Source: Candidatus Omnitrophota bacterium
GTDB taxonomy: Bacteria; Omnitrophota; Omnitrophia; Omnitrophales; Aquincolibacteriaceae
Length of the DNA: 64,000 nucleotides
NCBI GenBank assembly: GCA_016930235.1
Contig: JAFGHI010000007.1
Location: 27,341 to 91,340, forward strand
Direction: 5' to 3'
Under the pieces are notes generated by a model that was given only the letters and a program-made list of their open reading frames with translations, was not told where the DNA came from and did no database searches. The position numbers and the translations under genes were made by a program. Below are positions 53,004-63,214 of this stretch, piece after piece; position 1 is the stretch's first letter; each line of letters opens with the position of its first letter.

Positions 53004-54113
53004 ATGTCAGAAGAGACACTTCTAAAAACAGAAAGAATGGCTCGCAGGATTGAGCCTTTGTGCCCCGCTTATGGGATTTGCGGGGGCTGTGCTTATCAAG
53101 AGATCCCATATCCTGAAGAGCTTGGGGCCAAGGAAAACCGTGTCCATAAGCTTTTTCGGGACGGGTTGGGTGTTGGGGCGGAAGTTCTTAAGCCGATACA
53201 GGCTTCCCCCAAGCCTTATTATTACCGGAATCGAGTTGATCTGACTTTGAGGCGTCTGAAATCCGGTGAAATCATTATGGGTTTTCAACATGAGAATTCT
53301 CATCAGGTCGTCAGAGTGGATTCCTGCGATCTTGCTATGCCGGTGATTTCAGATGCCTTCCCCGGGATCCAAGAAGAGGCTTCCAGGAAACTTCCCGGTG
53401 ATTACCGGACGGCCAATCTTGTCATTAAAAGCGGGGATGACGGACGTGTCCTTTGGGGCGGGATCGGGAGACATTCCTGCCGGCTGGAAGAAAAAGATTA
53501 CCTGTGGGCGGAGATCAAAGGCAAGAGGTTCTTTTACTCGCTCGATACGTTTTTTCAGGCGAATTTGACGATCCTTCCCAAATTAATGGAGGTCCTTGAA
53601 GAATACCTGCCCGGCGGCGACAATGCCCTTCTATATGATCTTTATGCGGGGGTTGGATTTTTTGGTCTTTATTTCGCGTCCCGGTTTCGTCGTGTCTTTT
53701 TGATCGAAGAAAGTGATACGTCTTGTGATTTGATGAAGTTCAATCTCAGATATCACGGGTTGCCTCATGTTGAGGCGATCAGGGGAAAGGTTGAGCATCT
53801 CTTCCCTGGTTTGCTTTCGCAATCCCAGGGTCGGCATGTGGCGATGATTGATCCCCCCAGAAGGGGACTAAGTGATGAGACCCGAGCGATGCTGGCCAAG
53901 GAAAAGCGGCTGGAGGCACTCGTTTACTTGTCCTGTAATCCGGAAACATTGGTTCGGGACCTTAAAGATTTTCTTGAAGAGGGGTGGAGCCTGAAAGTTG
54001 TCATTCCCTTTGATTTTTTCCCCAGGACAAAACATATTGAAACCTTGACCCTTTTGCACCAGGAGCCCACCGCTGGCGCCCACCGCGTAGGTGGCCTTTT
54101 CAATCATTCCTAA
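53004..54113 (+). CDS. RumA/RlmD-like 23S rRNA (uracil-5)-methyltransferase with Fe-S cysteines; 3' end fused to a REP element
   Basis: CPAYGICGGCAYQ cluster. SAM motif DLYAGVGFFGL. C-terminal FPRTKHIETLTLLHQ. The last 16 codons (EPTAGAHRVGGLFNHS) are encoded by the REP inverted repeat. Confidence 0.6.
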   Translation: MSEETLLKTERMARRIEPLCPAYGICGGCAYQEIPYPEELGAKENRVHKLFRDGLGVGAEVLKPIQASPKPYYYRNRVDLTLRRLKSGEIIMGFQHENSHQVVRVDSCDLAMPVISDAFPGIQEEASRKLPGDYRTANLVIKSGDDGRVLWGGIGRHSCRLEEKDYLWAEIKGKRFFYSLDTFFQANLTILPKLMEVLEEYLPGGDNALLYDLYAGVGFFGLYFASRFRRVFLIEESDTSCDLMKFNLRYHGLPHVEAIRGKVEHLFPGLLSQSQGRHVAMIDPPRRGLSDETRAMLAKEKRLEALVYLSCNPETLVRDLKDFLEEGWSLKVVIPFDFFPRTKHIETLTLLHQEPTAGAHRVGGLFNHS

Positions 54114-54152
54114 CGTTCGGTTTGGTCGAAAAGGCCACCTACGCGGTGGGCG
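54065..54152. repeat. REP doublet with a 25-bp perfect inverted repeat (CGCCCACCGCGTAGGTGGCCTTTTC / GAAAAGGCCACCTACGCGGTGGGCG) and a 26-nt loop
   Basis: Both arms read directly from the sequence. The left arm is preceded by GCCCACCGCTGGCGCCCACCGCG, which recurs at 61926-61949 and inverted at 63128-63150. Confidence 0.8.
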
Positions 54153-54167
54153 AAGCGGTTCGAAGTG

Positions 54168-56092: not shown

Positions 56093-57630
56093 TGAAACGA
56101 TTAGCCCTCGGATTCATCTTTTTTATCTTGTTAACTATTCATTCGTCCGGGAATATTTTGGAAGCGAAAAGGGAGGTTCCGCTTCCCCAAGACCTCACCG
56201 TCCCGGCCGATCTTTTGAAACGCGGGGAGATGCTCTCCATCGATGAAGCGACGCGCTTGGCCGTTGCTGATAATCTGGATATCCAAATGGTCCGTCTCGA
56301 AAGAGAAGGCACCCAAAAAGATACCCAGATTGCCGACGGTGTTTACGACACGCAAATGGAGCTTGCCGGGACCTATTCTCAGGACAAGGCTGAGCGGGCA
56401 AGCCTTGTGTCGGGCTCCCGGGAACTTGAGGGGATTGTCCAGGTGGGTTTCCAGAAGAAGATTCCCTTGGGGACCGACGTGGGCGTTTCCGTGGGGACGA
56501 TTCGAAGATCCAGTTCAAGCAGTTTTACGACGCTTGACCGGAATTATTCCAGTTTTATGGAAGTGTCCGTGACCCAGCCGCTTTTAAGGAATTTCTTTGG
56601 GTACATTGACCGTAAACAAATCGAACAGGTGAAGATCAATGTGAAAAAGTTCGATTATGAAACCCTTGATCGCATTGAGAGTTCCGTCATCGGGATTAGG
56701 AATCAATATTGGGATTTGGTGTTTGCGTACGAAGATTTGAAAGCGAAACTCGATGCGCTGGGCAAAGCACAGGATTTTTTCCGGATCACCAAAGAAAAAC
56801 TTGATATCGGAACGGCTGAAGAGCCCGATGTCTATGCCGCGGAGGCGAATGTCCGTAACCGTGTGGTCCAGGCTTTGGAAGCGGAAACCCAATTGAACAC
56901 GCATTCTTATTCGTTAAAGGTTCTCCTGGGGGGGATCCAAGTGGATCTTATCCTTCCCTCTGACCGGCCGGAATTTAAAGTGATTGAAGTCCAGTATGAA
57001 GCGGCTTTGAGTGAAGCGATGGAGCAAAGGCGCGATCTTAAACAAATGGAGCTTTCCATTGAAGACCAGGTCATCGAAAGAAAGATCAAGTGGAATGAAA
57101 GGCTTCCCGAGCTTGAATTTGCCGGGACCTGGGCGTCCACGAGTCTTGACCGTGAAATGGCCTCCAGCCAGGGTGAGGTTTTCAGCGGCAATCACCCTCA
57201 GTATTTCGGAGGCGTGACGATGACATCCAACCTTGAACTTCGCGCCGAACGGGGAAGTTACAGCCAGGCGGAGTATGAACTCGCACGGCTTCGCCGTGAG
57301 CTTGAAAAATTGAAGCTCGTGATCGGTCAGGAACTCGACAAGAGCTACCGGACATTAAAATTGGCAGAAGAGCGGGTTAGGCAGACACGCGAGATCGAGA
57401 ATCTTCAGAGGAAGAAACTGACCGAAGAAGAAAAGGACTTTAATGTCGGACGCTCGGATTCCAAAACGATTATTGATTTTCAAGATGATGTGATTAAGGC
57501 CGAAACCGAAGCGATCCTGGCTTTAGTGGATTACGTCAAGGCTGTGGATGGTTTTTACCGGTCCAAACACACCCTGCTGGAGTGGGTCGGCGTGACCGAT
57601 CGGCAAGCGGTGGAAGGGGAAAAGAAGTAA
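56089..57630 (+). CDS. TolC-family outer-membrane efflux protein
   Basis: Signal peptide plus the two-repeat OEP architecture. 513 aa. TAATG overlap with the RND gene. Confidence 0.65.
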   Translation: MMKRLALGFIFFILLTIHSSGNILEAKREVPLPQDLTVPADLLKRGEMLSIDEATRLAVADNLDIQMVRLEREGTQKDTQIADGVYDTQMELAGTYSQDKAERASLVSGSRELEGIVQVGFQKKIPLGTDVGVSVGTIRRSSSSSFTTLDRNYSSFMEVSVTQPLLRNFFGYIDRKQIEQVKINVKKFDYETLDRIESSVIGIRNQYWDLVFAYEDLKAKLDALGKAQDFFRITKEKLDIGTAEEPDVYAAEANVRNRVVQALEAETQLNTHSYSLKVLLGGIQVDLILPSDRPEFKVIEVQYEAALSEAMEQRRDLKQMELSIEDQVIERKIKWNERLPELEFAGTWASTSLDREMASSQGEVFSGNHPQYFGGVTMTSNLELRAERGSYSQAEYELARLRRELEKLKLVIGQELDKSYRTLKLAEERVRQTREIENLQRKKLTEEEKDFNVGRSDSKTIIDFQDDVIKAETEAILALVDYVKAVDGFYRSKHTLLEWVGVTDRQAVEGEKK

Positions 57631-60600
57631 TGAGAAAACTGATTCAATATTGCGTCAACCATTCACTCTTTGTGAATCTGCTTTCGGTCTTTCTTTTTGT
57701 TGCCGGAATTATCTGTTTGATTGCTCTCAGACGCGAGGCCTTTCCCAATATCAGCTGGGATATCGTGGTGGTACAAACCGTCTATTTCGGTGCGCCTCCG
57801 GAAGAAATCGAAAAGTTGATCACCATTGAGCTTGAAGAAGAACTCAAAGAGGTGAACGGGATTGACGAGATGATCTCGGTTTCTTCGGAGAACCGTTCCG
57901 TGATTACTTTGAAGTTGGATCCTGACGAGAAGAACAAACCCAAGATTGTGAATGATATCCAGCGGGCGGTGGACCGGGTCAAAGACCTCCCCGAAGATGC
58001 CGAGGACCCCGTCGTCGAAGAAGTCGAAAGCAAGGACATGCCGGTGATTAATGTCTCGCTTTCCGGGAAAATGTCGGAACACGAACTTCAGAAGATCGCC
58101 AGAAAACTCGAGCTTGAGTTGTTGGACCTTCCGGATGTGGCGCGCATTGACCGCACCGGCTGGCGGGACCGGGAAATATGGGTCGAAGTCGATCCGAAAA
58201 AAGTTGAAGATTATTACCTGTCCTTGTCGGACATTATCCTCTCTTTAAGCAATAAGAATCTCAATATCCCCGGAGGAACTCTGGACACGCCGAAGGGCGA
58301 ATATTTGATCCGCACGATCGGTGAATTTGGTACTGCCGCAGAGATCGAAAAAGTGATTATCCGTGCTAATGACCAGGGCAATTGGATTCAAGTGCAAGAT
58401 GTCGCGCAGGTTCAAGATACCTTTGAAGACGATGATTTGATTGAAAAGACCCATGGGGAGCTTGCGATTACCCTCACGGTGGTTAAAAAAGAAAAAGGGG
58501 ATATCATCCGTCTTGTGGAGGATATCAAGACGAAAGTCGAGGACTTCAAAAAAGATGCGCCGGAAGGACTTCGTGTCAGTTACTTTGATGATTTTTCGTA
58601 TTACGTTAAACGCCGTTTAAATGTGCTCACCAATAATGGATTTATTGGTGTGACCTTGGTCGTGGTTGCCTTATTTATCTTCCTGACGCGGACCGTCGCG
58701 ATCATGACGGCGATCGGCATCCCCATCGCGATTTTGACGGCCTTTTTTGTGATGTATATTTCCGGTTTTACCATCAACCTGATCACGATGTTTGCGCTCA
58801 TTATGGTCTTGGGAATGGTGGTGGATGATGCCATCATTATTTCCGAAAATGTTTACCGGCACATGGAAAAAGGCAAGGCGCCGCGGGAGGCTGCGGTGAT
58901 CGGGACAAGTGAAGTTGCCGTCCCGGTGATTTCGACAGTCCTTACGACCATCGTTGCTTTTGTCCCGCTTTTTTTCATGAGCGGTATTATGGGGAAATTT
59001 ATTTGGGCGATGCCGATGGTGGTCATTATTGCCTTAAGCGCTTCGCTCTTTGAGGCGCTCTTCATCCTTCCCAGCCACTTGGCGGATTTCGGACGGGTCT
59101 CGACCTCTGAGCACAAGAAGAAAGTCGAGGTCTGGATGCAGCAATTTCAGGAGTTTTACCTTTCAGGCCTGAGGTGGGTGATCAAACAACGTTATCTCTT
59201 TATCGGGAGTGCGTTCAGTTTGTTTTTTCTGGTCGTCATTTTTAATCTTTTAGGGTTGCATTTTGTCCTTTTCCCCCAGGGGTTGATCGAGGAGTTTTTT
59301 ATCCGCTTGAAGGCCCCGATCGAAACCTCGATTCAGGAAATGGAAAAGAAAATGAACCAGGTCGATCAACTGGTGGCCAAGCTTCCTGACAATGAATTGG
59401 ATAATTTCGTCACGCGGGTCGGGATGCAGATGACCGACCATAGCGGACTTGATAATGTCCGGGGGTCGCATCTGGGTCAAATTCACATCTTTTTGACACC
59501 TGAAACGACGCACGGAAGGCGTAAGGCCGATGAGATTATTGCTTGGCTGCGAAAAGAGATGAAAGGGATGGAGAATTTATTCGAAGAGATTACCTTTGAG
59601 AAGGTTCGGGCCGGGCCGCCGGTAGGAAAGCCCGTTGAAATCCGGATCCGAGGGGATGAGTTTTCCGTTCTCGAAGAGGTCGCTGAGAAGGTGAAGGCAC
59701 GATTACATAAAATTGAGGGGGTCGAGGACATTGAAGATGACTATAGTGTCGGGAAGCCTGAGATCCGGATCAATGTCGATGAGGAAGCGGCGACCAAGGC
59801 TTATCTCAGTATTCGGGATATTTCGACAGCGGTCCGGAATGCGATGGATGGCGGGATTGCAACCAAGATCCGCAAAACGGATGAAGAAATCGATGTGATT
59901 GTCCGCTACCCTGCGTCGGAGACCAATGGCGAAGAGGTCTTGGAATCGATACGGATCCCCAACCGGTACGGGAATCTGGTGGCCCTCAACAAGGTTGCGA
60001 ACTTGGAAAAAAAGCAGGGGATCAATACGATCAAACATTTTGACCGTAAGCGCCTGGTGAATGTGACCGCGAGCGTGAATGAGGAGAAGGTGACCCCGGT
60101 TGAGATTGAAAAGATCATGACCCGTTACATCAAGGAAGATATCATGCCCCATTATTCAGGCGTGAACGTTAGTTTCGGGGGTGAGCAGGAGGAAACCCGA
60201 AAATCCCAGGCGGATTTTATTCGCGCGATCATCTTGGCGGTCTTCCTTATCTTCATCATTTTGGCGGCCAATTTTAATTCCGTCATTCAGCCGATTGTGG
60301 TGATGATGGCGATCCCTTTTGGGATTACCGGAGTTTTTCTGGCCTTTTTTCTTCACGGGATGGCGCTCAGTTTTATGGCGCGCCTTGGAATGATCGGGTT
60401 AAGCGGAGTGGTGGTGAATGATGCGATTGTTCTGGTGAGTTTTATCAATCAATTGCGACGCGAAGGGATGAGTTCGATTGATGCCGTTTTTGAGGCGGGT
60501 CGCTTAAGGCTGCGGCCGGTCCTTTTAACGACGGTTACAACGATAGCAGGATTGCTTCCCGTGGCTTACGGGATCGGCGGCAATGATCCCTTTATCCGTC

Positions 60601-60800
60601 CGATGGCGCTGGCGGTAGGCTGGGGACTTTTCTTTGGGACGGTTCTCACGCTTCTTGTGATCCCTTGTATTTATGTTGTGATGGCCGATGATTTTTCGGG
60701 GTGGTGCCGGCATTGCGGGGAATATGTGGCGAAGACGCTCTGGCCGCGGTTGAAGCATTTCATCTCGGCCGGTTTTTTGTCGATAATGAAAAAATCATGA
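57630..60800 (+). CDS. RND-superfamily efflux permease (AcrB/CzcA family)
   Basis: 1057 aa. 12 TM helices with two large periplasmic loops. The segment LITMFALIMVLGMVVDDAIIISENVYRH is a conserved RND TM4 block. Confidence 0.8.
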   Translation: MRKLIQYCVNHSLFVNLLSVFLFVAGIICLIALRREAFPNISWDIVVVQTVYFGAPPEEIEKLITIELEEELKEVNGIDEMISVSSENRSVITLKLDPDEKNKPKIVNDIQRAVDRVKDLPEDAEDPVVEEVESKDMPVINVSLSGKMSEHELQKIARKLELELLDLPDVARIDRTGWRDREIWVEVDPKKVEDYYLSLSDIILSLSNKNLNIPGGTLDTPKGEYLIRTIGEFGTAAEIEKVIIRANDQGNWIQVQDVAQVQDTFEDDDLIEKTHGELAITLTVVKKEKGDIIRLVEDIKTKVEDFKKDAPEGLRVSYFDDFSYYVKRRLNVLTNNGFIGVTLVVVALFIFLTRTVAIMTAIGIPIAILTAFFVMYISGFTINLITMFALIMVLGMVVDDAIIISENVYRHMEKGKAPREAAVIGTSEVAVPVISTVLTTIVAFVPLFFMSGIMGKFIWAMPMVVIIALSASLFEALFILPSHLADFGRVSTSEHKKKVEVWMQQFQEFYLSGLRWVIKQRYLFIGSAFSLFFLVVIFNLLGLHFVLFPQGLIEEFFIRLKAPIETSIQEMEKKMNQVDQLVAKLPDNELDNFVTRVGMQMTDHSGLDNVRGSHLGQIHIFLTPETTHGRRKADEIIAWLRKEMKGMENLFEEITFEKVRAGPPVGKPVEIRIRGDEFSVLEEVAEKVKARLHKIEGVEDIEDDYSVGKPEIRINVDEEAATKAYLSIRDISTAVRNAMDGGIATKIRKTDEEIDVIVRYPASETNGEEVLESIRIPNRYGNLVALNKVANLEKKQGINTIKHFDRKRLVNVTASVNEEKVTPVEIEKIMTRYIKEDIMPHYSGVNVSFGGEQEETRKSQADFIRAIILAVFLIFIILAANFNSVIQPIVVMMAIPFGITGVFLAFFLHGMALSFMARLGMIGLSGVVVNDAIVLVSFINQLRREGMSSIDAVFEAGRLRLRPVLLTTVTTIAGLLPVAYGIGGNDPFIRPMALAVGWGLFFGTVLTLLVIPCIYVVMADDFSGWCRHCGEYVAKTLWPRLKHFISAGFLSIMKKS

Positions 60801-61906
60801 GAAAAATTTTCATCGGGACGATTATTCTTGCTTCAACGCTTGTGAGCGTTCCTTCAGGATGGGCTGCGGCCAAGAAACCGGAGATTCCGAAGGCCCCCAA
60901 TTTTTATTGGGGTGGCATTTGGCTCAATACGCCCGCTTTGACACGCCGGTTTTTTGAAGGGAAGGTCACGCTGGTTTATTTTTGGGATTATGCGTCGATC
61001 AATGCCATCCGGGATATCGGGACACTCCAAAAATGGCTTGAGGCTTACCGTTCTTTTGGTTTTGAAATCTTATGGGTGCATGCGCCCTCTTATGAATTCG
61101 GCAAGCAAAGGGAAAACGTGGAGGAGGTTCTCAAGCGGTTTGGCATTACGGGGCCCGTACTTTTGGACAATGATTTTAAGTTATGGGATGCCTATAAGGT
61201 CCGTTCCTGGCCGACCAAGGTGCTTGTGAATCCGCAGACGGCCATCATTCATACACAGGTCGGAGAAGGGAATTATATGGATATTGAGACAAGGATCCGC
61301 GAAGAATTGCGGGATAAGCAAGTGAGTGTGATGCTGCCGACGCCTGTTTTTGCGCGGGAGCCCATCCGGTACAGTTTGGATGAGTGCGGTGCGATTATGA
61401 CGGAGACCCCGATCGGGTATGACCGGTTTAAATGGTGGGGCGGGCAGATTGCCAATAAAAGGTGGGTCGATCCCGACGGGACCTTGCTTTTCAAGGACCG
61501 GGGAGATCGGGTGGAGCGCGGGTTTTTCGCCGAAGGGCTTTGGACCAATGGTGCTGAAGGGTTCATCCACGCGCGCGAAACGGAGCATCTGACGGATTAT
61601 TTGGGGCTCCTTTACCAATCCTTTGAAGTCTATACGGTGGTTCATCATACCCGGGCCGGTGAGACCGCGCGTATCTATGTCACCCGCGACGGCGAACCTG
61701 TCCCCGAGGAGATGCGGGGGAGTGACCTGAAGGAAGATGCCCGCGGCAGCACCTATTTTCTAATGCAGGAACCTCGTCTTTACTACTTAATCACCCAAGA
61801 GGATGAAGAGTGGCATGAGATCAAATTGTGGACCCGTTCGGAAGGTGTTTCGGTGAATGCTTTCTCATTTTCAAACCGCTGCTTGAGCGACTTCGCCCAC
61901 CTTTGA
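60797..61906 (+). CDS. Secreted thioredoxin-fold (TlpA/redoxin-like) protein lacking the CxxC active site, with C-terminal unknown domain
   Basis: Signal peptide. VTLVYFWDYASINAIRDI aligns with the redoxin active-site region, but the cysteines are replaced. ATGA overlap with the RND stop. Confidence 0.4.
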   Translation: MRKIFIGTIILASTLVSVPSGWAAAKKPEIPKAPNFYWGGIWLNTPALTRRFFEGKVTLVYFWDYASINAIRDIGTLQKWLEAYRSFGFEILWVHAPSYEFGKQRENVEEVLKRFGITGPVLLDNDFKLWDAYKVRSWPTKVLVNPQTAIIHTQVGEGNYMDIETRIREELRDKQVSVMLPTPVFAREPIRYSLDECGAIMTETPIGYDRFKWWGGQIANKRWVDPDGTLLFKDRGDRVERGFFAEGLWTNGAEGFIHARETEHLTDYLGLLYQSFEVYTVVHHTRAGETARIYVTRDGEPVPEEMRGSDLKEDARGSTYFLMQEPRLYYLITQEDEEWHEIKLWTRSEGVSVNAFSFSNRCLSDFAHL

Positions 61907-62648
61907 GCCCGTCGGCCTCCGGCCTCGCCCACCGCTGGCGCCCACCGCGGCGGTGTCCTTTTTTTTCAGCAAAGATGACCTTTTTTATCTTGGCAAGTTC
62001 CCGCTGGGCCGAAATTCGGTTTTCGACAAAGGATTGGTATCGTTTGGGCTCGATCTTAAGGACATCCTTGAATTCACAAATTGCGTCTTCAACCGGGATG
62101 TTTTCGTGATAAAGATATTCCAGATAAGATGAAGCGGGCCAATCCCCGGGATGATTAACAAGACGTGCGGTCACAGGGTTAAGATGCAGATAGCGCGTGA
62201 GGTGGAGTAGCTGTTCGTCCTTTGTCACATGGACCCATTTGTAACGGCTTTGCCAGAGAGGTCCTTTGCGATTGTGAACGAGATTAAAATATCGGGTATA
62301 GCTGTTAAGGATATCGTTCATAAATTTCGCGATAGCTCGGTTGGAATGTGGGCTCAAAATCAAATGAAGATGAGTCGGCATGAGACAATAGGCGATTATT
62401 TGAATATTCTTTTTATGGTCAGCAAAGTGATGCGAGAAGACTTTGTGGAAGCCGAACGTTTGGACCTCTTTAAGTTCGAGGTATTTTGAGAAGCGATAAG
62501 CGTGATGATTGTATTGGAAAAACCGTATGAGCTGAAGCATCCTTAGATAATCGCTGTTGTGTTGGAAGATTTCAAATCCCGCGATGGATTTAGTATACAC
62601 ATGGTAATTTTCTCCCGCGGTCAGGGGATGGATAGGTTCTTGAATCAT
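61821..62648 (-). mobile_element. REP-associated tyrosine transposase (RAYT; IS200/IS605 TnpA-like Y1 HuH transposase)
   Basis: HuH motif IIAYCLMPTHLHLIL. Catalytic Tyr region GPLWQSRYKWVHV. It is flanked by inverted REP copies. The track ORF tail (GHRRGGRQRWARPEADG...) reads through the REP, so the true stop may be earlier. Confidence 0.65.
61905..61968. repeat. REP element copy (GCCCACCGCTGGCGCCCACCGCGGCGGTGTCCTTTTTTTT) at the 3' side of the RAYT gene
   Basis: Shares a 23-nt identical core with the copy at 54066-54088. It is preceded by a GGCCTCCGGCC palindrome. Confidence 0.75.
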
Positions 62649-62950
62649 AGCTTTTGAAGTTCCTTTCCGGCGCTTCGATCGATTTTATATTTTGCGACTC
62701 TGAGCGCATCCGGGAAGTAAACCCAGCATTCTTGAATGCCGGGATCTTTGCAGACCACCACGAGTTTTTTCTCTAACGAGAAACTTTGATGATCCTGCAA
62801 ATGCTCGGCCCGGATATCCCGGTGGCGGAGTTTCCGTATCAGGAAATGCCTTTCTCTTTCTAAAAGCTGGCAAGCGATTTCGAGAAAATCGTTGACGATG
62901 TCCTCCCAAACGTGATGGGTTGGGGCCTGGCTTTGGATACTTGTTGTCAT
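62645..62950 (-). CDS. Hypothetical 101-aa protein encoded immediately upstream of, and overlapping by 4 nt, the RAYT gene
   Basis: ORF only; no family recognised. A palindromic site lies ~100 bp upstream. Confidence 0.3.
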   Translation of the reverse strand: MTTSIQSQAPTHHVWEDIVNDFLEIACQLLERERHFLIRKLRHRDIRAEHLQDHQSFSLEKKLVVVCKDPGIQECWVYFPDALRVAKYKIDRSAGKELQKL

Positions 62951-63048
62951 TTTCTTTCTCCTTTTGAAGAAGTGTCAGAAGCTTACCGGGTAAAATAAAA
63001 AAAGGGAAGGACAGAACAGAAAAAAGTTTCGGGGTATCTACTAATAAT

Positions 63049-63077
63049 GGATATGAATCTACTAATAGTAGATATCC
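63049..63077. promoter_or_regulatory. Palindrome GGATATgaATCTACTAaTAGTAGATATCC with an adjacent direct half-site repeat
   Basis: Perfect 8-1-8 core ATCTACTAaTAGTAGAT at 63057-63073 with flanking GGATAT/ATATCC. An extra ATCTACTAATAAT lies at 63036-63048. Confidence 0.45.
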
Positions 63078-63116
63078 TGAGCGGAAATAAGAAGTTTACA
63101 AATGTAAGGAAAGTAA

Positions 63117-63172
63117 GAAAAGGCCACCGCCGCGGTGGGCGCTAGCGGTGGTCGGGCCTGCCGGAGGCAGGC
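63117..63172. repeat. REP element copy in inverted orientation relative to 61926-61966, followed by a GCCTGCCggagGCAGGC hairpin
   Basis: GAAAAGGCCACCGCCGCGGTGGGCGCTAGCGGTGGTCG is ~95% identical to the reverse complement of the 61926-61966 copy. Confidence 0.75.
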
Positions 63173-63214
63173 GGCGCGGTGCGGAAGCGGTTTCGTGAGC
63201 GGGAGGGGTCGTGA

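Follow-up and report, generated by a model that had tools for sequence, protein, structure and literature searches.

A probable REP/RAYT locus at a conserved gene junction of Candidatus Omnitrophota

The E. coli TnpA-REP protein, or RAYT (REP-associated tyrosine transposase), forms together with its repetitive extragenic palindromes (REPs) and bacterial interspersed mosaic elements (BIMEs) a REPtron (PDB 4ER8), assigned to subclass 2.2 by Quentin et al. 2018 and to Group 2 by Bertels et al. 2017. Class 2 (TnpA-REP-like) proteins are reported to carry a Y---NP motif and a spacing of about 58-67 amino acids (aa) between the HuH motif and the catalytic tyrosine (PMC6006769), and each tnpA-REP gene of this class is reported to have a REP family of its own. 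Members of subclass 2.1 (TnpA-Y1/TIRYT, median 238 aa) end in a DnaA_C-like helix-turn-helix (HTH) and are reported without REPs, having terminal inverted repeats instead, and in subclass 2.4 the REPs lie inside tnpA, between HuH and Y (PMC6006769). Copies of IS200, of class 1, are reported to be ~99% identical (PMC6006769 Table 1). Here we describe a locus in a 64,000-nucleotide stretch of DNA from a Candidatus Omnitrophota bacterium (assembly GCA_016930235.1, contig JAFGHI010000007.1, positions 27,341 to 91,340 of the forward strand), hereafter the window, in which a RAYT gene stands between two inverted copies of one repeat. The locus is likely a REP/RAYT system of known kind in an understudied, uncultivated phylum; the system type itself is ordinary and already known, and what is new is a further RAYT/REP member in Omnitrophota. 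Its features, in window coordinates, are as follows.

61821..62648, minus strand: RAYT open reading frame (ORF), 275 aa (ORF listing)
61968..62648, minus strand: conserved coding region of RAYT, residues 1-227 (Pfam, NCBIfam, PDB 4er8, alignment of 19 homologues)
61821..61967, minus strand: non-conserved 3' extension of the RAYT ORF, 48 codons (missing from homologues)
61926..61968, plus strand: REP-L, abutting the end of the conserved RAYT region (repeat search, profile)
63113..63154, minus strand: REP-R, the inverted copy, in the intergenic region between queF and the small gene (repeat search, profile)
54064..54159, unstranded: REPIN, two inverted REP copies, 7.7 kb from RAYT (nhmmer, folding)
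62645..62950, minus strand: resident small gene, 101 aa, outside the element (family search, synteny)
60797..61906, plus strand: Thioredoxin_10-family gene, left boundary of the insertion (Pfam, alignment of six orthologues)

The transposase and its clade

The protein is a member of the Y1 family, as the original prediction claimed when it proposed a search with the Pfam model. Y1_Tnp (PF01797) matches residues 78-155 with 39.6 bits against a gathering cutoff of 23 (E 6.5e-10), the top NCBIfam model is REP_Tyr_transpos (E 2.3e-18), and the closest solved structure is that of E. coli TnpArep (PDB 4er8, E 9.5e-5). The HuH (HLHLIL) and catalytic tyrosine motifs named in the same prediction can be read directly from the translation and both are intact: T92-H93-L-H95-L-I-L at 62364-62372 and, 60 aa further on, Y153 in R-Y153-LHLNP at 62190-62192. 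Judged by its Y---NP motif and this spacing, RAYT belongs to the REP-associated class 2 type; the Y---Q motif of class 1 is not what it carries, and the IS200 model NF033573 (transpos_IS200) gives 14.7 bits against a cutoff of 55 (E 0.027). An SS motif stands in the tail at residues 173-174. At all 44 invariant columns of the alignment RAYT agrees with its 19 aligned homologues, and tblastn finds no second copy in the 64-kb window.

Homologues number more than 1,800, with a typical length of ~221 aa, and those that carry an organism name are Candidatus Omnitrophota/Omnitrophica. We sampled 80 homologue loci from metagenomes (L075-L154); the complete ORF could be delimited in 79, in which the gene encodes 208-238 aa. 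The family signature consists of T-H-u-H, PLWE and Y[ILV]HLNP, with THuH in 73 of 74 family sequences and Y[ILV]HLNP in 65 of the 74.

With E. coli TnpA-REP the window protein has in common the Y1 HuH core and the single catalytic tyrosine in Y---NP, and the two systems are also alike in having REP hairpins on both sides within at most 1 kb, a dispersed repeat family that includes a REPIN and, as far as the window extends, one gene copy. They differ in that the E. coli protein has 165 aa whereas the clade of the window protein has about 221 aa, with ~35 extra residues between the N-terminal YH strand and the HuH, a ~65-aa C-terminal tail, and T instead of D/N before the HuH. The window REPs have the apex CACC-N5-GGTG, and the copies flanking the gene are without a clear 5' GTAG foot. 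The sequence match to E. coli TnpA-REP is weak (E 9.5e-5 to 4er8) and stays under the NCBIfam equivalog cutoff. Subclass 2.1 resembles the window protein in length, in Y[IV]HLNP and W[EQ] and in the SS of the proximal tail; unlike that subclass, the window RAYT has REP hairpins, and Pfam finds no HTH domain in it.

The repeats and the insertion site

The original prediction described the locus as a canonical REP-RAYT-REP arrangement with inverted REP copies ~95% identical. The repeats are real and inverted, with an identity of 90%: 61926-61965 and 63115-63154 are complementary at 90% over 40 nt, and when one 3-nt gap is allowed the repeat lengthens to about 61909-61968 / 63113-63174 (~60 nt), so that it includes one more small hairpin at either outer flank (61909-61924 and 63156-63174). 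Scored for orientation, the flanking repeats give 67 as inverted and 23 as direct, and for a 30-mer with at most 3 mismatches 0.00 occurrences are expected by chance and 3 observed. The gene is flanked by REPs within about 1 kb, so that the arrangement stands as regards inverted REPs on both sides; it is not tight, since only the 3' REP abuts the gene. REP-L abuts the 3' end. REP-R, inverted, is found upstream at a distance of 466 nt from the RAYT start, past the host gene; homologues have a hairpin about 18 nt before the ATG instead.

The original prediction also asked whether the REP-like sequences were unique to this locus; they are not. A profile of the REP copies searched with nhmmer finds exactly four in the 64-kb window, two at RAYT and two at 54 kb, the latter at 54064-54101 on the plus strand (E 1.7e-12) and 54128-54159 on the minus strand (E 9.8e-9). 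This doublet sits between two methyltransferase genes and forms a single long hairpin when folded (-43 kcal/mol, z about -9), in which GTAG...CTAC brackets an 11-bp stem. Given that the same repeat occurs here as an inverted doublet, we regard the repeats as a dispersed REP family. All four copies have in common an invariant core of ~27 nt, non-stem positions included, and the apex CACC-GCGGC-GGTG or CACC-GCGTA-GGTG; in REP-L it is the former and is followed by T8. An independent 4-kb Logan assembly contig of the same sample, the one sequence that public assemblies yielded for RAYT, ends inside REP-R, as expected at a repeat. Rfam returns sub-threshold chance matches only (isrD E 0.47, mir-873 E 0.89).

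The association of gene and hairpin extends to the family as a whole. A tight flanking repeat is present in 62 of the 75 homologue loci with both flanks available, with median distances of about 18 nt from the upstream repeat to the ATG and about 5 nt from the stop to the downstream one. Hairpin sequences vary from locus to locus; what they have in common is the apex CACY-N4-6-RGTG, with the loops TACGA/TCGTA, GCGTA/TACGC and CCTGG/CCAGG. Such a hairpin is found upstream in 38 and downstream in 39 of 67 loci (0.011 expected per 90 nt), and GTAG/CTAC is often located in its loop. Three paralogues on one 532-kb contig are 55-60% identical and each has a different hairpin, which fits the reported class 2 rule of one REP family per tnpA-REP gene.

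The gene itself is an insertion. Immediately upstream of RAYT a 101-aa ORF overlaps its ATG by 4 nt (ATGA), an overlap noted in the original prediction and evident in the sequence, and from which that prediction proposed a two-gene unit. The small ORF is preceded by a ribosome-binding site (GGAGA, 7 nt before its own ATG) and shows the G+C content by codon position of a typical coding sequence. A word-indexed search had returned its own genome only, and the ORF might have passed for an orphan; an exhaustive HMMER search overturned this, finding 94 cluster representatives at E<1e-3, 35 of them at <1e-10. Nearly all family members have 80-136 aa (~95 aa is typical; two weak matches lie in much longer proteins), and the conserved pattern is WEDLVxDFLE...ECW. 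No Pfam model matches the family. A confident AF2 model of the 101-aa protein built with an alignment (pLDDT, the predicted local distance difference test, of 85) has two helices and a four-stranded sheet, and searched against PDB it has no significant fold neighbour. The family is uncharacterised, and its members with a named organism are Omnitrophota.

For seven homologues of the small ORF we examined gene order at nine places (loci L155-L165). In 9 of 9 the order is queF, small ORF, Thioredoxin_10 gene, RND transporter, with the small gene directly after queF and convergent with the Thioredoxin_10 gene, the same order as in the window, and none of the nine contains a Y1_Tnp gene. The convergent stops of small ORF and thioredoxin-like gene are -23 to +122 nt apart in these loci versus 738 nt in the window, where the gap is occupied by RAYT and REP-L. 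In the other direction, searching all 80 RAYT homologue loci with a profile built from the small-protein family turns up not one member. Given this conserved synteny without RAYT and the 0/80 co-occurrence, the small ORF is a resident gene and not a partner of RAYT, and the proposed two-gene unit does not hold; nor does the ORF always accompany RAYT, a point that the original prediction wished to see surveyed. Because relatives keep the same junction without RAYT, RAYT together with REP-L is, by this comparison, a lineage-specific insertion of ~740 nt at a conserved convergent gene junction. REP-R is not within the ~740-nt insertion; it occupies the neighbouring intergenic region, that of queF and the small ORF. 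An inversion of the segment between the two inverted REPs was considered and rejected, as the gene orientations equal those of the relatives.

Some further observations concern the surroundings of this junction. In locus L157 the space between queF and the small ORF is taken up by an insertion (2095-2711) of a Fic-domain gene and a 75-aa gene, possibly a toxin-antitoxin pair, so this intergenic region accepts insertions in other lineages too. The longer spacers between small ORF and thioredoxin-like gene in L160 (1925-1980) and L163 (2365-2405) hold a strong G+C-rich palindrome of different sequence; this could be either a local terminator or a REP of another type. In the window itself, positions 63029-63080, upstream of the small ORF, contain an A+T-rich operator-like element: a perfect palindrome, ATCTACTAnTAGTAGAT, with a second, partial copy at a distance of 21 nt; the surrounding region (62951-63114) has 33.5% G+C, and the element was found in no fetched related locus. 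On the other side, the ORF calls for the RND transporter (57582-60800) and the thioredoxin-like gene (60701-61906) overlap by 100 nt, an artefact of calling the latter from an upstream GTG; the orthologue alignment places its true start at the ATG at 60797.

Weighing the alternatives

Several findings weigh against a REP/RAYT system. The NCBI RAYT equivalog NF047646 gives 66.5 bits for the window protein, under its cutoff of 80; nine homologues scanned with it all stay under that cutoff as well (58-72 bits), and in the nine clade members the alignment is limited to profile positions ~30-146, the C-terminal two-thirds. The copies that flank RAYT show no evident canonical 5' GT[AG]G foot, having GGCG at that position. 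Within the 64 kb of genome examined there is one REP site outside the RAYT locus, and a scan of 185,579 species-representative genomes, a set to which the source metagenome-assembled genome apparently does not belong, with the REP core CACCGCTNGCGCCCACCGCG yields single chance matches only: 73 loci with one match each, nearly all in G+C-rich unrelated genomes, the sole Omnitrophota match (L027) falling within a coding ORF. The flanking hairpins of the homologues are mostly in direct orientation (about 50 of 62 loci; clearly inverted in about ten) and hug the gene as in IS200. Finally, of 59 strongly conserved columns RAYT has a non-consensus residue in 5 (median 1 and maximum 5 among the others); since its stop is lost in addition, as described below, this copy may be decaying.

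Is the locus then a decayed copy of a small, autonomous IS200-like insertion sequence, built as hairpin, tnpA, hairpin, with the REP-like copies as solo ends or miniature derivatives, and not a domesticated partnership of REP and RAYT? We consider this the one serious rival, albeit an unlikely one. The gene has clearly moved, having inserted into conserved synteny, and in most homologue loci a pair of similar subterminal hairpins in direct orientation lies close against the gene, forming a unit of ~0.75-0.8 kb as in IS200; extra hairpins within +/-4 kb occur in only about nine loci, and the window copy has neither a 5' hairpin, nor a promoter-like element, nor a stop of its own. Against a relic of this kind stand the tyrosine motif, which is Y---NP and not the Y---Q of class 1, and the IS200 NCBIfam model, which fails by a wide distance as given above. 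No second copy, near-identical or otherwise, is seen in the 64-kb window, paralogues on one contig are 55-60% identical with distinct hairpins versus ~99% identity among IS200 copies, and the inverted REP doublet at 54 kb is free of any transposase gene. The window repeats are moreover inverted, the 5' one lying beyond a host gene, whereas those of IS200 have the same orientation.

That the repeats are ordinary intrinsic terminators, alike by chance or convergence and unlinked to the transposase, is far less probable still. The flanking and the 54-kb copies are located at gene ends and are G+C-rich hairpins followed by a T-run, and two of them are called terminator-like; yet the invariant ~27-nt core recurs in four copies where none is expected by chance, a CACY-N5-RGTG apex flanks homologues in unrelated metagenomes about 50-fold over background, and terminator function and REP identity can coexist. 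A dedicated two-gene mobile unit of the 101-aa ORF and RAYT, bounded by the inverted REPs, is the least probable of all: the ATGA overlap, the common strand and the position of both genes between the REPs speak for it, but the small ORF keeps its syntenic position in nine loci that lack RAYT, its family is absent from all 80 RAYT loci, and in most RAYT homologue loci the hairpin stands so close to the ATG (about 50 nt at most) that a small gene would not fit between the repeats. Both this unit and chance terminators are effectively excluded.

Read-through, expression and meaning of the locus

The REP/RAYT reading thus preferred leaves the 3' end of the gene to be accounted for. The original prediction remarked that the RAYT ORF appears to read through the downstream REP, and this is borne out: the proteins of the 19 aligned homologues stop at query residue ~226-228 in ...ELAKIKxLIxD, and the ORF runs on for 48 codons, an extension seen in no homologue (208-238 aa). 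Translation of the tail runs first through REP-L and continues on the antisense strand of the thioredoxin-like gene, over its last 28 codons; 86 nt at the end of that gene are overlapped in this way. The C-terminus of that gene, FSFSNRCLSDFxHx, is kept in the six aligned orthologues up to the native stop at 61906. The tail has 59% G+C against 43% in the RAYT core, and is without a codon-position pattern; all three reading frames are open across the G+C-rich REP-L. We consider the tail fortuitous. In many homologue loci the 3' hairpin begins at or slightly before the stop codon, so the loss of a stop readily yields read-through. Two candidate causes of the loss were rejected. A single substitution TAA->GAA, with TAA at the equivalent position of REP-R, fails as the aligned TAA is out of frame, and a change in length of the A8 run restores no nearby stop because all three frames are open across the REP.

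A second in-frame REP is found at the 3' end of the tRNA (uracil-5)-methyltransferase-like ORF (53004-54113). The Pfam domain ends at residue 353 of 369 (nt ~54062) and the last 16 codons are REP sequence (54064-54101); a REP therefore abuts or replaces the native stop there too, and lengthens the host protein. REPs translated within an ORF, with the frame unbroken, are a likeness to the RAYTs of subclass 2.4 (PMC6006769). Unlike the REPs of that subclass, those of the window abut or replace stops and add C-terminal tails.

How might the system act and be expressed? By analogy with E. coli TnpA-REP, RAYT would be a single-tyrosine HuH endonuclease of class 2 whose cognate REP hairpins are CACC-N5-GGTG. 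H93 and H95 would bind the metal ion, and the enzyme would bind REP hairpins on single-stranded DNA, cleave them and rejoin the ends via Y153, with the result that REPs, single or as inverted doublets (REPINs), would become dispersed across the genome. Expression would differ from that of its relatives. A -10-like TAnnnT element is present in the 25 nt before the ATG in 35 of 73 homologue loci; it often follows a TG, and it ends about 6-9 nt short of the ATG, a placement that suggests leaderless transcripts. In the window RAYT there is no hairpin and no -10-like element before the ATG, and the gene appears to have lost its own 5' region with these features. Since its ATGA overlaps the stop of the small gene, RAYT is most likely co-transcribed and translationally coupled with the 101-aa gene, using that gene's promoter. 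REP-L, a hairpin followed by T8 on the plus strand, probably also ends the thioredoxin-like transcript, as judged from its match to the terminator consensus. With respect to the site of insertion, 27 of 73 RAYT homologues directly follow an unrelated ORF of at least 60 aa (up to 1,321 aa) on the same strand that ends at most 60 nt from the RAYT start, which hints that they may favour insertion at gene 3' ends.

It is conceivable, and we put it forward tentatively, that the ~221-aa clade is an undescribed TnpA-Y1 subclass. Such a subclass may be marked in the protein by T-H-u-H instead of D/N-H-u-H, by the ~35-aa insertion before the HuH and by an SS tail without HTH; in its hairpins by the conserved CACY-N5-RGTG apex and a mostly direct flanking orientation; and in its genomes by several divergent paralogues, each with its own hairpin, with a -10-like element in about half of the loci. 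If true, it would stand between IS200-type elements and domesticated REPtrons, and the window locus would be a member that a host operon has captured, with loss of its own 5' end and with expression now tied to a resident gene.

Regardless of its rank, the locus likely brings to Omnitrophota a partnership of REP and RAYT so far studied mainly in Proteobacteria and Cyanobacteria, and offers a clean case in which conserved synteny dates a RAYT as an insertion and in which this RAYT apparently relies on a host gene for its expression. For annotation it carries two lessons: REPs can replace stop codons and so lengthen predicted proteins, by 48 aa in RAYT and by 16 aa in the tRNA methyltransferase-like protein, and a 4-nt overlap is no proof that two genes form one unit. 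The CACC-N5-GGTG hairpin, found family-wide, provides a concrete substrate for biochemistry.

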